Below are positions 8,726 to 19,418 of a stretch of DNA of 27,773 nucleotides, piece by piece. Each line of letters begins with the position of its first letter. The first letter of the stretch is position 1. Origin of the DNA: a virus (taxonomy: Duplodnaviria; Heunggongvirae; Uroviricota; Caudoviricetes); the IMG/VR virus record IMGVR_UViG_2531839178_000008, positions 1-27,773 of that record. The stretch is one strand, 5' to 3'. Both the position numbers and the translations under genes were made by a program. The notes under the pieces were generated by a model, which was given only the letters and a program-made list of their open reading frames with translations, was not told the DNA's origin and ran no database searches.

Positions 8726-9432
8726 TTACCAGCTATGCGATGACCAGAATACTCTGCCAATAATCCTTACGGTTTTATGAAATTCATCTCTATCCATTAC
8801 TTCATCCGGGTACTCTTCGCGATTTATTGATCTGATTATCACCGATGTAGGAGTGGCGATTAATGTTTTTACTCGCAACAAATCAGACTGGCAAATAGCG
8901 TAGGTTTTACCATCTCTGATGGTGGTATCTTGTGTGTTAACACCAACAACATCGCCATCGTGAAGAGTTGGTTCCATGCTTTGACCTGTTACCCTTACCA
9001 GCTTGGCAGAACTTTCAGTTACCCCCATCTTTTTCAGATAGTACTTTCTGAAAACCAAAGAGAACTCTGATGATTCTTCTATCTCGCAGCTACCGCTTCC
9101 AGCCGAAAGCGAAACGTTAAGAAGAGGCAATGCGACAAACTCGTCATCGTTTTTTTAATGTCTTCCCATACCACAGCTTTTAAAGATGACTCACGGATAT
9201 TGGATGGTTCTTCATGTGTACCATCCCTCATTTCACCAATACCAGAACTAAGCCATTCAGGGCGTACTTTTAAAGCATTAGCTAACTCAACCATCTTGCG
9301 AGATCCGTTTGTTTTACCGGATGACATCTTCTGTATGGCTGGCTGAGATATTCCAACCATGTCCGCAAGCTGTGATTGCGACACCCCTGCCGATCTCATG
9401 GCTGCATTTAGTCTTTCTGCGAATGTTTTCAT
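8726..9432 (-). pseudogene. cI: cI-like repressor (XRE-type HTH plus S24 LexA-like peptidase domain) interrupted by a frameshift
   Basis: N-terminal frame from ATG 9432 encodes the HTH domain (QSQLADMVGISQPAIQKMSSGK). A second frame (8726..9130) encodes ...LPLLNVSLSAGSGS... with Ala-Gly and GQSMEPTL (S24 Ser motif). The frames meet at an A7 run (coding strand; + strand T7 at 9150..9156); one extra A gives a continuous repressor. Confidence 0.8.
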
Positions 9433-9444
9433 ATCCACAAATCT

Positions 9445-9520
9445 ATAACTACGGTTATCCAAAGTAAAATAATAAAGGTTATTGCTATCTTTTATAACTT
9501 GGGTTATCCTTGGTTATAAG
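9445..9520. promoter_or_regulatory. OR operator region with divergent promoters
   Basis: Palindromic sites ATAACTACGGTTAT (9445..9458) and ATAACTTGGGTTAT (9494..9507), plus AATAAAGGTTATT (9471..9483) and a partial site at 9510..9520; putative pR -35 TTGCTA (9482..9487) and -10 TATCCT (9505..9510). Confidence 0.6.
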
Positions 9521-10228: not shown

Positions 10229-10372
10229 ATGCGAAAAACGCAGGAAAATAAACGCGTTAATCACCGAAAAGATGTGCTACGTGACCAGTTTTATCAGGGG
10301 GTTAATCCAGAAATAGCTGTGCCACTGAGAGAAATACTTAACAGGTACAAAACTTCGGAGAAGTCAAAATGA
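10229..10372 (+). CDS. small hypothetical protein (47 aa)
   Basis: ATG 10229 with GAGG upstream; stop overlaps the next start (ATGA). Confidence 0.4.
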   Translation: MRKTQENKRVNHRKDVLRDQFYQGVNPEIAVPLREILNRYKTSEKSK

Positions 10373-11121
10373 GCATGAATCTTATGGCTAAGGCCATGAA
10401 TATAAAGGTTGGCAACCCACTGAGAAAACTGATTCTGATTAAACTTGCCGATAACGCCAATGATAATGGCGAATGCTGGCCTTCATATCAACATGTCGCT
10501 GACCAGTGTGAGGTGAGCAGATCGACAGTAAAAAGTCACATTAGGGCACTGGAAGAGATGGGGCTTTTGAAAAGGGAATGCAGAAGAAAAGGAGAGCTTA
10601 ACCAGTCAAACGTTTTTTATCTGACGCTGGATAATGCACAACAAATCCCACCAGAATCAGGTGGGGCAGGAGCTGCCCGGGGTGGGGCAGGAGCTGCCCC
10701 CAGAACCTATCACTCTTTTGAACCAGTCAATGAACCTAAAAACATTATGTTCGAACATGTCCGAACGGAGTGTGAAAAAACTCCTGACCGTCACGAAGAA
10801 ACCGACAAGGCATTCGAGGAAATATTCTGGTGTGCAGGCATGCGGAAAGCCGGGAAGAAAAACGCAGCTTCGGCATTCAGAACACAGTTCAGGGAATGGC
10901 GTAAAACTACCAGGGGGACGGCAAGCGAGTTTGCCACGATGCTGGCAGACGATATTGCATGCAGGAATGGTAAGCAGTTCGGATTCGACAGGTTGTTACC
11001 GTCGAGCTACCTGAACGGTCAGCGCTGGAACGACGAGAAGCCAGAAACCATTCAACCACAATCCAGACCATCATCCGCAATTACCGTATCGAAAACTGGC
11101 TACGTGTTTTTCGACAGGTGA
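10369..11121 (+). CDS. replication initiation protein (O-like, winged-helix N-terminal domain)
   Basis: N-terminal HTH-like segment (NPLRKLILIKLADNANDNGECWPSYQHVADQCEVSRSTVKSHIRALEEMGLLKR) of the type found in phage replication initiators; internal iteron-like repeat; position after cII. Confidence 0.6.
   Translation: MSMNLMAKAMNIKVGNPLRKLILIKLADNANDNGECWPSYQHVADQCEVSRSTVKSHIRALEEMGLLKRECRRKGELNQSNVFYLTLDNAQQIPPESGGAGAARGGAGAAPRTYHSFEPVNEPKNIMFEHVRTECEKTPDRHEETDKAFEEIFWCAGMRKAGKKNAASAFRTQFREWRKTTRGTASEFATMLADDIACRNGKQFGFDRLLPSSYLNGQRWNDEKPETIQPQSRPSSAITVSKTGYVFFDR
10660..10701. repeat. two tandem 21-bp repeats with internal dyad symmetry (candidate origin iterons)
   Basis: GGTGGGGCAGGAGCTGCCC occurs at 10660..10678 and 10681..10699, each with inverted GGGCAG/CTGCCC arms, followed by an AT-richer stretch; encodes a GGAGAAR/GGAGAAP repeat. 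Confidence 0.6.
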
Positions 11122-11124
11122 ACC

Positions 11125-11232
11125 ATGAAATCAAAAATCAAATCGCTACTGGTCGCTGGTTATAACCACGGCTGGTTAAGTATTTCGTTTGTCGATTTCT
11201 GGTTTAAAAATCTCAATCTGAGGGAATCATGA
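11125..11232 (+). CDS. small hydrophobic ORF (35 aa) coupled to the primase-helicase start
   Basis: ATG 11125 four nt after the upstream stop; stop TGA overlaps the primase-helicase ATG; MKSKIKSLLVAGYNHGWLSISFVDFWFKNLNLRES. Confidence 0.3.
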   Translation: MKSKIKSLLVAGYNHGWLSISFVDFWFKNLNLRES

Positions 11233-14135
11233 GGCCAAGTGAACTTAGCGACCTGCTTTGGGCGCAGGTTGACAGGGTGGCTCCGCACCTGTTGCCAAAT
11301 GGCAAGAAAGAGGGGCATGAGTGGGTTGCCGGTAACGTCAACGGTGACAAGGGAAACAGCCTTAAGGTCAACCTTAGCGGCAAGAAAAAATGGGCTGATT
11401 TCGCTGAGGGAGACGGCGGTGACATGCTTGATTTGTGGATGGCATGTCGTGGAATTAACCTGCATCAGGCTATGCAGGAAGCGAAAGCATTTCTCGGTAT
11501 CAAGGATGACGATCACCATTTCGATGCCAAACGTGAGAAGAAATTCTCCAGACCTGATCGCAAGAAAATCGCCCACTACGTTACCAGAACAGAATCCCAT
11601 CTTGAGTACCTGCAATCGCGTGGCATATCGCCAGAAGTCGTAAAGCGCTACGAGGTTGTCAGCGGCAAGGTGTGGAATGGAGAACGAGAACTGGATGCTC
11701 TGGTGCTTCCGTACAAACGCGATGGTGAGTTGTTGCAGGTCAAGCGAATCAGCACTGAGCGCCCGGACGGGAAGAAAGTCATTATGGCAGAAGGTGATTG
11801 CGAACCTTGCCTGTTCGGATGGCAGGCTCTGGACGCTGGCGTGAGGGCGGTTGTGCTTTGCGAAGGCGAAATTGATTGTATGAGCTATGCGCAATACGGC
11901 ATCTCGGCGTTATCCGTGCCGTTTGGTGGCGGGAAAGGCGCTAAGCAACAGTGGATTGAGTTTGAGTATCACAACCTCGACAGGTTTGAGGAAATATTCA
12001 TCTCGATGGACGTTGATGATGTTGGTCGTGAAGCCGCAAGGGAAATCGCAAGCCGACTCGGTGAACATCGTTGCCGTCTTGTTACTCTGCCGTACAAAGA
12101 CATCAACGAATGCCTGATGAACGGTGTTACCGAGGATGAAATCTGGCAGTACATCGGCACGGCATCCTACTTTGATCCTGAAGAACTCTACAGCGCGCGA
12201 GAGTTTTACCAGGACACTATCAACGCTTTCTACAGCAAGCAGCAGTATCTGTTTAATCCACCGTGGGAATCTCTGGCAGATAAATTCCAGTTCCGTGAGG
12301 CCGAGTTGACGCTGGTCAATGGTGTGAACGGTCACGGAAAGGCATGCCCACTGAATGAGCCTATTCTTTTAGCTGATGGGACATGGACTACTCACGGGAA
12401 TGTAAAAATTGGCGATCAGGTGGCGTCAGTAGACGGCAATCCGTCAACTGTCACTGGGATATTCCCGCAGGGTGTTAGAGATGTTTACCGAGTCACATTT
12501 GAAGATGGTCGTTATGTTGATTGCGCAGGCGATCACCTATGGGAGGTCACTAGTCGTGGATTCACGAAAGGCGAGAAACGCCGCGTGATAGATACCTTCG
12601 GGTTGAAGCGGTTGAGTGAAACGAAGAGGCACAAAAATGGCGTTAGGATTCCTGAAATAACTGGTGACTTTGGCGACCACTCAGAGCCATTAGCATGGGT
12701 TATCGGCTCCCTTCTCGGGGATGGTAGTCTTAGCAATGGGAGCGTGAAGTTTTCAAACGTCGAGCCATACATGATCGAGCGTATGAAGGCTGAACTGCCT
12801 GATTACAACTTCTCTGGAGATGGTAAGGACTGGCTGATATCAACGGCGCGTGGTCAGGTAAATCCACTCATGGAGACCCTGCGAGGTTATGGACTAATGG
12901 GGTGCACAGCAAAAAACAAATTCATCCCTCGTGTGTTTTTTTCCGCAAATAAATCAACGCGTATAGGCATGCTGTGTGGTCTGCTTGAAACGGATGGGTA
13001 TGTCGAGAAGGATGGAACGCTTGTTTTTTCCTCAGCAAGTGAAGAACTGCGCAATGGGGTTGTTCAACTGGTTAACTCACTCGGCGGGTCATGCCGGACG
13101 CGAGTTAAAACTGGCGTGACATACACATACAAGGACGATAAGCGGCATGGGATGGATTCATACGAGGCAAGAATCAGACTGACAAGAGAAATCAGGGAGG
13201 CCATCCGTTCACCACGACTCAATGGCAGATTAACTGCGCATCGATTCGAGGGCTGTGGGGTATTCGTCAGGAATGTTGAAAAAATCGGCAATGCAGAATG
13301 CTTGTGTATTATGGTCGATCACCCTCGCCACCTGTATGTAACCAGGGGATATGTGGCGACGCATAACACCGAGGTTGTCGGGCATATGGCACTTGAGGCA
13401 ATGCGTCAGGGTGTGAAGACGTGCATCGCGTCACTTGAGCTGAAGCCTGGTATTCTCCTTAAGCGCCTTACCCGTCAGGCGACGTGCTGCAAGATTCCGC
13501 CAGTGCTGGAAATTGACTCTGCATTTAAATTTTATGACGAAAGACTTTGGGTGTTTGGCCTGACCGGAACGGCGAAAGCCGACAGGCTGATCGAAATATT
13601 CGACTACGCTCGCCGCCGATACGGGATCCAGTTATTCATCATCGACAGCCTGATGAAATGTGGCATAGGCGACGATGACTATAACGGGCAGAAGGCGTTT
13701 GTTGACTCGATTTGCGACTTCAAAAACAAAACAAACTCCCACGTCATTCTCGTTACTCACTCGCGAAAAGGAGACAGCGAAGAAAAACCAACCGGGAAAA
13801 TGGACGTAAAAGGCTCTGGAGCGATAACAGACCTGACAGACAACCTTTTCATCATCTGGCGTAACAAGGCTCGCGAGAGAGCGTTACAGAGAGTTCAGAG
13901 TGGTGAAAAGATGTCAGAGAAGGACGAACAGCTACTGGCATCTCCGGCATCTGTTTTAATGCTTGAAAAACAACGTAACGGCGAAGGTTGGGAAGGTGGT
14001 GTCCCGTTGTTCCTTGACGAGCAATCGCACCAGTTCCTGCAACTTGAATCAGGATCGCCATATAGCTACATCGCCAATATGCCGAAATCGGAATATGACG
14101 AGGCGTGGCGACAGGAAAACGTGACGGAGTATTAA
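11229..14135 (+). CDS. primase-helicase (Toprim primase plus gp4/DnaB-like SF4 helicase) containing an intein
   Basis: Toprim motif (VVLCEGEIDCMSYA), P-loop GVNGHGKA interrupted, Walker B-like IQLFIIDSLMK after the insert; 968-aa ORF with GAGGG ribosome-binding site. Confidence 0.85.
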   Translation: MRPSELSDLLWAQVDRVAPHLLPNGKKEGHEWVAGNVNGDKGNSLKVNLSGKKKWADFAEGDGGDMLDLWMACRGINLHQAMQEAKAFLGIKDDDHHFDAKREKKFSRPDRKKIAHYVTRTESHLEYLQSRGISPEVVKRYEVVSGKVWNGERELDALVLPYKRDGELLQVKRISTERPDGKKVIMAEGDCEPCLFGWQALDAGVRAVVLCEGEIDCMSYAQYGISALSVPFGGGKGAKQQWIEFEYHNLDRFEEIFISMDVDDVGREAAREIASRLGEHRCRLVTLPYKDINECLMNGVTEDEIWQYIGTASYFDPEELYSAREFYQDTINAFYSKQQYLFNPPWESLADKFQFREAELTLVNGVNGHGKACPLNEPILLADGTWTTHGNVKIGDQVASVDGNPSTVTGIFPQGVRDVYRVTFEDGRYVDCAGDHLWEVTSRGFTKGEKRRVIDTFGLKRLSETKRHKNGVRIPEITGDFGDHSEPLAWVIGSLLGDGSLSNGSVKFSNVEPYMIERMKAELPDYNFSGDGKDWLISTARGQVNPLMETLRGYGLMGCTAKNKFIPRVFFSANKSTRIGMLCGLLETDGYVEKDGTLVFSSASEELRNGVVQLVNSLGGSCRTRVKTGVTYTYKDDKRHGMDSYEARIRLTREIREAIRSPRLNGRLTAHRFEGCGVFVRNVEKIGNAECLCIMVDHPRHLYVTRGYVATHNTEVVGHMALEAMRQGVKTCIASLELKPGILLKRLTRQATCCKIPPVLEIDSAFKFYDERLWVFGLTGTAKADRLIEIFDYARRRYGIQLFIIDSLMKCGIGDDDYNGQKAFVDSICDFKNKTNSHVILVTHSRKGDSEEKPTGKMDVKGSGAITDLTDNLFIIWRNKARERALQRVQSGEKMSEKDEQLLASPASVLMLEKQRNGEGWEGGVPLFLDEQSHQFLQLESGSPYSYIANMPKSEYDEAWRQENVTEY
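12345..13367 (+). mobile_element. intein (341 aa) with a LAGLIDADG homing-endonuclease domain, inserted at the helicase P-loop
   Basis: Starts at Cys (CPLNEPILLADG...IGDQV...DG, block A), block B His (AGDHLWEV), two LAGLIDADG motifs (WVIGSLLGDGSL and IGMLCGLLETDGYV), blocks F/G (CLCIMVDHPRHLYV...GYVATHN) ending in His-Asn, followed by Thr as +1. Confidence 0.8.
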
Positions 14136-15737: not shown

Positions 15738-15872
15738 AGGTATCAACATAACAAAATCGTTATATGCATTCAAGGCCTGTAGTTGACGACAACACATATC
15801 CGGGGCTATATTCCTCACGCGCCAGCAAAATCTGGCGTCGGGATTGGAACCCCGGATATCGAAACGGTGCAT

Positions 15873-15892
15873 ACCGCGCTGGCGGTTTTTTT
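15873..15892 (+). terminator. weak intrinsic terminator in the nin region
   Basis: ACCGC-GCUG-GCGGU followed by T7 on the + strand. Confidence 0.35.
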
Positions 15893-16055
15893 ATGCGCTA
15901 AGCACAGTCACATTCGCGATTTATGGCGGGCTGTGTGGGGGCACCGAAAGGTGCGCCGGATGTTTCGACCGGTAGTTCCAACCCTGCACAGTTCGCCACC
16001 CGATGATTGGAACCTGAAGGTGGTGAGGTAAAAATTATCGAAACGCGAGGTCGTT

Positions 16056-19262: not shown

Positions 19263-19337
19263 GGGTCAGTCGTATAAAGGTCATTACGGAAGGCTGTTAA
19301 CCTTCTTATCGTGGTTCGAGTCCACGCTGTCCCGCCA
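19263..19337 (+). tRNA. tRNA-like gene, anticodon GUU (Asn-like), atypical
   Basis: Canonical T arm CGTGG-TTCGAGT-CCACG, anticodon arm GAAGG-CTGTTAA-CCTTC, encoded CCA; but acceptor stem has a U-U mismatch and the D arm is only 3 bp. Confidence 0.4.
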
Positions 19338-19342
19338 AACAT

Positions 19343-19418
19343 GCTGGTTTAGCTCCAATGGTAGAGCAGTCGCCTTGTAAGCGAATGGGTAGCGGTTCAA
19401 GTCCGTTAACCAGCACCA
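19343..19418 (+). tRNA. tRNA, anticodon UGU (Thr)
   Basis: Manual fold: acceptor GCTGGTT/AACCAGC, D arm GCTC-CAATGGTA-GAGC, anticodon loop CTTGTAA, variable TGGGT, T arm AGCGG-TTCAAGT-CCGTT, discriminator A, encoded CCA; 76 nt. Confidence 0.65.

Follow-up and report, generated by a model that had tools for sequence, protein, structure and literature searches.

A pair of dyad-symmetric repeats inside an HTH_36-type initiator gene as the probable replication origin of a lambdoid prophage

The DNA analysed here, called the window throughout, is a stretch of 27,773 nucleotides from a tailed virus (Caudoviricetes; positions 1 to 27,773 of IMG/VR record IMGVR_UViG_2531839178_000008), in which the replication initiator gene contains two tandem, dyad-symmetric repeats followed directly by an AT-rich element. 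We conclude, with a probability of about 0.8, that the repeats are iterons for the winged-helix domain of the initiator in whose gene they lie, and that together with the AT-rich element they form the replication origin of a lambdoid prophage. This reading draws on the anatomy of the site, the conservation of motif and element at the DNA level, the match between the motif and the recognition helix of the initiator, and the equivalence in position with annotated lambda-type origins, all of which were observed directly. The initial annotation of this DNA had proposed a lambda-style origin inside the initiator gene, and at the level of sequence each prediction that follows from it held (placement, low-stability stretch, domain swap, a motif kept in two reading frames, and helix match). 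The features of the putative origin and its gene are as follows.

10660-10678, no strand assigned: candidate iteron 1, GGTGGGGCAGGAGCTGCCC, with the dyad GGGCAG-GAG-CTGCCC
10681-10699, no strand assigned: candidate iteron 2, the identical 19-mer with 7-bp arms, abutting the conserved element as in all relatives
10702-10737, no strand assigned: conserved AT-rich element of 29-36 nt, AGAACCTATCACTCTTTTGAACCAGTCAATGAACCT (family consensus AGAACCAGTCACTCTTTTGAACCAGTCAA), directly 3′ of the last repeat
10708-10747, no strand assigned: least stable 40 bp of the initiator gene by nearest-neighbour stability
10369-11121, plus strand: replication initiator gene, an open reading frame (ORF) of 250 amino acids with an N-terminal winged helix-turn-helix (HTH), a linker encoded by the repeats, and a tailed C-terminal domain
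10369-10644, plus strand: region coding for the N-terminal winged helix (amino acids 1-92), with recognition helix SRSTVKSHIRALE; presumed iteron-binding module
10741-11121, plus strand: C-terminal module (amino acids 125-250), presumed helicase-recruiting domain, with nucleotide identity to the ES18 and Sf101 genes

The two exact 19-nt copies were found by a repeat search of the window, and Tandem Repeats Finder reports the array (10660-10699) with a period of 21, 1.9 copies, 100% matches and a score of 80, the highest in the window. The initial annotation had described two 21-bp tandem repeats, each with an internal dyad, within the coding sequence of the initiator; the two tandem copies, the period of 21, the dyad in each copy and the placement are as described, but the identical unit is 19 nt rather than 21. 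Both dyads have 6-bp arms around a 3-bp centre, and in the second copy the arms extend to 7 bp (GGGGCAG-GAG-CTGCCCC). When the window was scanned with the 16-mer core of the repeat, allowing up to 3 mismatches, all 3 matches fell at the array and none elsewhere (shuffled sequences gave an expectation of 0.14, and none reached 3). The array is 80% GC, within the top 0.03% of 40-mers in the window, and lies in frame with the ORF, encoding GGAGAAR-GGAGAAP at codons 98-111 of 250. The least stable 40-mer of the ORF (30% GC, nearest-neighbour free energy −46.6 kcal/mol) begins 9 bp past the end of the array, and the neighbouring 40-mer at 10716-10755, also 30% GC, ranks in the lowest 2% of the window; the AT-richer stretch that had been noted after the repeats is therefore real. 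In relatives, mean GC likewise falls to 0.42-0.45 in the first 40 nt past the array. GC skew was not used; in lambdoid phages it mostly tracks the direction of transcription.

Since each unit is able to form a stem of 6-7 bp with a 3-nt loop, these GC-rich palindromes might instead function as hairpins in RNA or in single strands, serving for instance to attenuate expression, to mark a site for an RNase or to make translation pause between domains. However, the folding z-score is only −1.8, neither a terminator-like site on the plus strand nor a match to an Rfam family was found at the array, and in relatives the arms are kept in sequence and not merely in pairing. The common arm variant GCTGACC, which breaks or weakens the palindrome, is uncompensated in 47 units and compensated in 2. 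On these grounds we rejected the hairpin or terminator explanation as extremely unlikely.

To compare the arrays of relatives, we scanned IMG/VR with the 19-mer (loci L013-L131) and analysed 80 distinct arrays away from contig ends; because these loci were chosen by the 19-mer itself, motif conservation among them is partly circular, for which a second set, from GTDB, corrects (see below). The arrays contain 1-10 copies, with a mode of 4. The arms GGGCAG and CTG(C/A)CC hardly change between units, and the central 3 nt take several forms (GAG, CTC, CAT, ATT, ATC, TTC). In one quarter of the arrays (20 of 80) a single ORF contains the motif in two frames, giving both GGAGAA and VGQELP, with spacings of 17, 21, 22, 23 or 24 nt (for example L056, L087, L111 and L065). 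Conservation through the encoded peptide alone fails to explain this arrangement and, with the motif preserved in both frames, it appears to be the DNA rather than the peptide that is conserved. These patterns fit a dimer that reads duplex DNA as a pair of half-sites, and not a peptide repeat or a hairpin.

The same observations bear on the possibility that the array is only a coding minisatellite, that is, the product of slippage of a 7-8-codon unit encoding a flexible Gly/Ala linker, in DNA that has no role in cis. Consistent with this possibility, the units of close relatives are identical 21- or 24-bp blocks gained in frame (1-10 in DNA arrays, 1-9 in the 120 nearest protein clusters), and amino acids 93-126 lack secondary structure in a low-confidence structural model. 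Slippage accounts for the variation in copy number but not for the existence or conservation of the motif, and it leaves several results unexplained: the second-frame peptide arises from the same DNA motif, the arms are conserved where the centre is free, the motif changes along with the recognition helix across genera, and unrelated N-terminal domains of the lambda O type have iterons of their own at the same place. Thus, we regard a minisatellite without function in cis as very unlikely.

To obtain loci chosen independently of the repeat, we used the GTDB sample, with one genome per species and only the winged-helix domain as the query (alignment A2), which yielded 80 gammaproteobacterial loci from Pantoea, Pseudomonas, Aeromonas, Xenorhabdus, Shewanella, Erwinia, Photobacterium and other genera. 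Among the 75 of these that bear the AT-rich element, the 170 nt preceding the element contain 3 or more copies of the locus's own 17-mer in 72; 4 copies is the mode (33 loci), 25 loci have 5, the spacing is 21-24 nt, and shuffled controls gave 0.02 hits. A fixed-register self-complementarity score of the last 17-mer was uninformative, the register being off-centre, and the dyads were read directly from the sequences. Over about 150 distinct relatives the sequence of the repeat tracks that of the recognition helix, with a mean iteron identity of 0.90 where helix identity is at least 0.85 and of at most 0.65 otherwise. The following helix types and repeats illustrate the correspondence.

Helix RSTVK (window type): repeat GGGGCAG-GAG-CTGCCCC
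Helix A/SRSTVKV (Pseudomonas): repeat GGGGCGG...
Helix KRSVM: repeat GTGCAG..CTGCAC
Helix RRSVI: repeat GTGCAGGAGATGCAC
Helix KSAVR: repeat TGCC..GGCAC
Helix DRSTVR: repeat GTAGGCC..GCCTAC
Helix RRSVM (Shewanella): repeat AGTGAA..TTCACT
Helix KRSVMR (Erwinia tracheiphila): repeat GGTGAC-ACAGA-GTCACC

The element directly 3′ of the array is conserved as DNA across the family. It was found in 75 of the 80 protein-selected GTDB loci with 0-6 mismatches (all but one with at most 4), and it follows the HTH_36 domain in frame in all 104 IMG/VR viral contigs that have enough upstream context. In a Vibrio phage and in Salmonella phage S107, whose iterons and C-terminal domains both differ from those of the window, identity to the window at third codon positions is 0.83-0.92 in the element, compared with 0.36-0.47 in the N-terminal domain. 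Diversity at third positions amounts to 0.15 in the element as compared with 0.52 in the N-terminal block (Mann-Whitney p = 4e-9, for iteron and element codons taken together), and in 50 loci from high-GC hosts the GC content at third positions is 0.30 in the element as against 0.72-0.74 in the flanking coding sequence. Because third positions are conserved and poor in GC against the codon bias, the constraint on the element acts on its DNA and keeps it rich in AT. The element overlaps the stability minimum and, in the alignment with ES18 and Sf101, takes the position of the A-rich region of lambda-type genes, from which we infer that it is the unwinding or loading region. One further candidate, AACCAGTCAA at 10600-10609, which matches the half-repeat within the element, was considered as a third copy of that half-repeat and rejected as a coincidence of the conserved LNQSN peptide, since its third codon positions vary freely in relatives.

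Comparison with lambda-type genes points to a domain swap between initiators. ES18 gp59, Sf101 gp44, epsilon34, mEp043 O and the genes of other P22-like and lambdoid phages share with the window only the C-terminal half of the initiator gene, at ~93-95% nucleotide identity, and the sharing starts at about position 10737. Just upstream of this junction ES18 has four lambda iterons, ATCCCTCAAAATGAGGGA, spaced 20, 24 and 23 nt, in a stretch annotated in GenBank as rep_origin (P22 also has a GenBank rep_origin there), and Sf101 has at least 4 copies of TGTCACCAAAACGGTGACA at the same coordinates. The N-terminal halves of ES18 and Sf101 are of the Phage_rep_O family. In the alignment, the three genes converge at TAAAAACATTATG, and the repeats of the window with a 36-nt segment replace the lambda-type iterons with an A-rich spacer. 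The window thus resembles ES18 gp59 and Sf101 gp44 in its C-terminal half, in the toprim primase-helicase encoded downstream and in the short distance from the array to the shared module, and differs from them in that they have a Phage_rep_O N-terminal half, iterons of their own and a lambda-type A-rich spacer instead of the AGAACCAGTCAC... element. Because the genes converge past the repeats, the N-terminal domain and its own repeats constitute one exchangeable module, and the C-terminal domain that accompanies the primase-helicase another, a pattern that matches lambda. ES18 and Sf101 have a similar A-rich spacer although their iterons differ; for this reason, such origins probably combine, as a general rule, a conserved segment with variable iterons beside it. 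At 10749-10766, just past the AT-rich stretch, lies a near-perfect palindrome of 18 bp, GTTCGAACATGTCCGAAC, also detected as a 10-bp tandem repeat at 10747-10766; it is located at the start of the module common to ES18 and Sf101 and may be another part of the origin. In lambda, too, an inverted repeat lies to the right of the AT-rich region.

Location of an origin inside the initiator gene is a well-known arrangement. In lambda, the origin lies in gene O, where an AT-rich region comes after four dyad-symmetric iterons of ~19 bp (Tsurimoto and Matsubara 1981, cited in PMC8022706 and PMC7466680), and O binds these four sites around the middle of the gene (PMC8022706). In lambda, P22 and L, each initiator appears to bind iterons that differ from those of the others and lie within its own gene (PMC8022706; PMC7466680), and in the Shiga toxin (Stx) phages 933W and P27, which have six iterons, the two extra iterons lengthen O by 13 amino acids (PMC7466680). 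The array described here resembles ori-lambda in its location mid-gene, between a DNA-binding N-terminal domain and a presumed helicase-recruiting C-terminal domain, in its ~19-bp dyads about two turns apart, in the low-stability stretch directly 3′ of the sites, and in an N-terminal domain and iterons that travel as one module. It differs in that the N-terminal domain is HTH_36 and not Phage_rep_O, the iteron is unrelated in sequence, GC-rich and present in just 2 identical copies where ori-lambda typically has 4, a phage primase-helicase takes the place of lambda P and host DnaB as the partner, and units of 21 or 24 bp permit in-frame expansion. As in 933W and P27, natural variation in iteron number within the initiator gene changes the length of the initiator, although those phages have a lambda-type O with 4 or 6 non-identical iterons and the relatives of the window have 1-10 identical units in another initiator family. 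By the rule inferred for P22 gene 18 and phage L gene 18, the initiator would bind its own in-gene repeats; P22 gp18 itself is a Phage_rep_O protein with no detectable similarity to the protein of the window (BLASTP, E = 52).

By analogy with these systems, initiator dimers would bind each dyad site, with sites about two helical turns apart sharing one face of the DNA; the resulting nucleoprotein complex would destabilise the adjoining low-stability stretch (10702-10747), and the C-terminal domain would recruit the phage primase-helicase encoded just downstream. Alternatively, the sites might serve mainly for control, as an autoregulatory roadblock to the transcription or translation of the initiator gene, or in titration or handcuffing that limits replication, with replication starting elsewhere. 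Sites within the initiator's own transcription unit could impede read-through from pR, a regulatory array would tolerate a variable copy number more easily, and the Rep proteins of iteron plasmids both initiate replication and autoregulate. A precedent in lambda, which also speaks for a control role, is the silencing of replication by the plasmid-borne iterons ITN3-4 together with oop (PMC3349717). However, the fixed abutment of the array to a DNA-conserved, AT-rich and least-stable element points to initiation at this place, as does the equivalence with mapped or annotated lambda-type origins, and the window contains no further copy of the motif. Control and initiation are compatible roles, and we consider a mainly regulatory array with a start elsewhere unlikely.

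The number of units varies widely within the close lineage from E. coli, Salmonella and Shigella, in which each array consists of identical in-frame units of 21 or 24 bp: there is 1 unit in Stx2_16002, 2 in the window, 3 in the well-studied phage 24B, 7 each in EH2085 and WP9-S17, and 10 each in UTAK-8 and E26. In the 120 nearest protein clusters the counts have peaks at 2 and 6. Because SI5, a phage isolated from irrigation water, has 2 units and 24B has 3, a short array is compatible with a working phage. The initial annotation had suggested comparing copy number across homologous prophages, and had held that absence of the repeat, or variation without consequence, in replication-proficient relatives would speak against an origin; the number is indeed variable, and the motif itself is strongly conserved. 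Where copy numbers come from assemblies of short reads, arrays may be collapsed and the counts too low, and several contigs end inside arrays. Records that start or end inside the array are Klebsiella phage phiKp_30 (L009, 1-131), L015, L020, L038, L040, L046, L057, L062, L067 and L071; evidently, the array breaks assemblies or serves as an arbitrary record start. More tentatively, the number of in-frame units in the E. coli/Salmonella lineage would alter origin strength and the length of the initiator linker together and could act as a tuning knob for prophage replication, including in Stx phages of the 24B type.

We also considered a broader proposal, in which AGAACCAGTCACTCTTTTGAACCAGTCAA is the universal cis core of HTH_36-type phage origins in Gammaproteobacteria and the in-frame repeat beside it tunes prophage replication; taken jointly, these two ideas are tentative and somewhat doubtful. 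Such a core may always abut the last iteron, remain AT-rich against codon bias, and depend on neither iteron specificity nor helicase type. Its recognition might be alike in all these phages, for instance if, once melted, its single strand were bound by a host factor or by a conserved initiator surface.

Several points weigh against the interpretation of the array as an origin. The 2 copies in the window are at the low end, the family norm being 4-5, and since single-copy alleles are common, there is no tight constraint on how many sites are present, and an origin with two of them could be weak. Taken alone, the identical in-frame units of the close lineage resemble simple slippage of a coding repeat. 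The AT content of the stretch past the array, 70%, is moderate. The low diversity of the 19-mer in the IMG/VR set is partly due to ascertainment. Iteron identity correlates as well with identity over the remainder of the domain (rho 0.59, as against 0.39 for the helix), and the association between helix and iteron is confounded by shared ancestry and is not independent at every node. Finally, no binding, footprint or replicon experiment for the HTH_36 initiator family was found in the searchable literature.

In two records, E. coli FDAARGOS_944 (L212, ~4180-4190) and L022, the insertion sequence (IS) ISEc20 of the IS110 family lies inside the second iteron and truncates the initiator. Specific targeting of the iteron by ISEc20 was rejected: the junction occurs in 1 of 5426 complete E. 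coli genomes, and the IS is found elsewhere in 1224 genomes. The cI gene of the window (minus strand, 8726-9462) is split into overlapping ORFs for the HTH (9079-9462) and the S24 peptidase (8726-9130) by a 1-nt deletion in a T-run at ~9149-9155, which has seven T here and eight in E. coli FDAARGOS_944, where cI is a single 708-nt coding sequence. The split either marks cI as a pseudogene of a defective prophage or stems from a sequencing error in the homopolymer. Because the prophage may be defective, with cI frameshifted, selection on the origin of the window could be relaxed.

The initial annotation had called the initiator O-like, which fits its role and position but not its N-terminal domain. 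This domain matches Pfam HTH_36 (PF13730) at amino acids 17-67 (E 7e-14, 51.8 bits against a cut-off of 25), as do all 120 of the closest database proteins, and the protein matches PHROG 270 and 4617, 'replication initiation protein', with E values of 1e-67 to 6e-68. No match to Phage_rep_O (PF04492) was found at E ≤ 0.01, whereas the ES18, Sf101 and P22 initiators match that family at E 1e-35 to 7e-38. The repeats sit between HTH_36 and the C-terminal module (from about amino acid 125), in which no Pfam match was found. An AlphaFold2 model built from 20 near-identical sequences has a mean pLDDT (predicted local distance difference test) of 38.6 and served only for the rough pattern of secondary structure, which is the helix and strand order of a winged helix, and a PDB sequence search gave only weak matches to winged helices of the GntR/MarR type (E > 0.2). 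The C-terminal tail PSSAITVSKTGYVFFDR is common to all initiators with this primase-helicase downstream and is missing from a Vibrio-phage relative that has a different helicase downstream, suggesting that the tail contacts the helicase.

The gene order is cI (minus strand), cro, cII, initiator and a 968-amino-acid Toprim/P-loop primase-helicase, with the last of these located as follows.

11229-14135, plus strand: phage primase-helicase with Toprim_2 and P-loop helicase domains (Pfam, PHROG), interrupted by an intein; presumably loaded at the origin

Its position is that of gene P in 24B and of gene 61 in ES18. The nearest phages are the Stx2 phages 24B, Min27, F403 and F451 (94.5-94.7% identity), and two Stx2a prophage records are closer still (~96.6%). 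The gene homologous to the initiator is annotated 'O' in several Stx2 records including 24B, in which the next gene is annotated 'P'.

In the literature, nothing was found on this origin, its motif or the iterons of Stx phages of the 24B or Eru type; papers on Eru phages are silent on iterons, and the published work on Stx-phage origins that we found covers the lambda-type O/P module. The HTH_36 initiator family with its iteron, the family-wide correspondence of helix and iteron, the near-invariant element and the variation from 1 to 10 units thus appear to be undescribed. This replication module occurs in Stx2 phages of the 24B, Min27 and F403 type and in many prophages of E. coli, Shigella and Salmonella, and phage replication contributes to the output of Shiga toxin. 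Placing the origin at 10660-10747 provides a concrete target for experiment, and the conserved element is a simple candidate for the unwinding or loading site. The list of helices and iterons is a data set on how winged-helix initiators read DNA, and the variable copy number offers a possible typing marker and a natural series for the number of iterons that an origin needs.

Immediately upstream of the initiator is a 47-codon ORF (10229-10372) whose stop overlaps the initiator start (ATGA), which suggests translational coupling; a small ORF occupies the same position in ES18, Sf101, SI5 and P22. The intein of the primase-helicase comprises 341 amino acids (373-713 of the protein; 12345-13367 of the window), is inserted directly after the P-loop GHGKA, starts with C and ends in HN followed by T, and matches Hint and LAGLIDADG homing endonuclease domains. 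Intein-free alleles of 626 amino acids occur in E. coli E26, ES18 and Sf101, and 24B has the 968-amino-acid form. Elsewhere in the window, Rfam matches at 15806-16003 to C4 antisense RNA, its a1/b1 targets and isrK suggest an antirepressor region under antisense control of the P1/P7 type downstream of the replication genes. The minus strand has a lambda cIII thermoregulator RNA element at 5601-5659, and two adjacent phage-borne tRNA genes, Asn-GTT and Thr-TGT, are found at 19263-19418.

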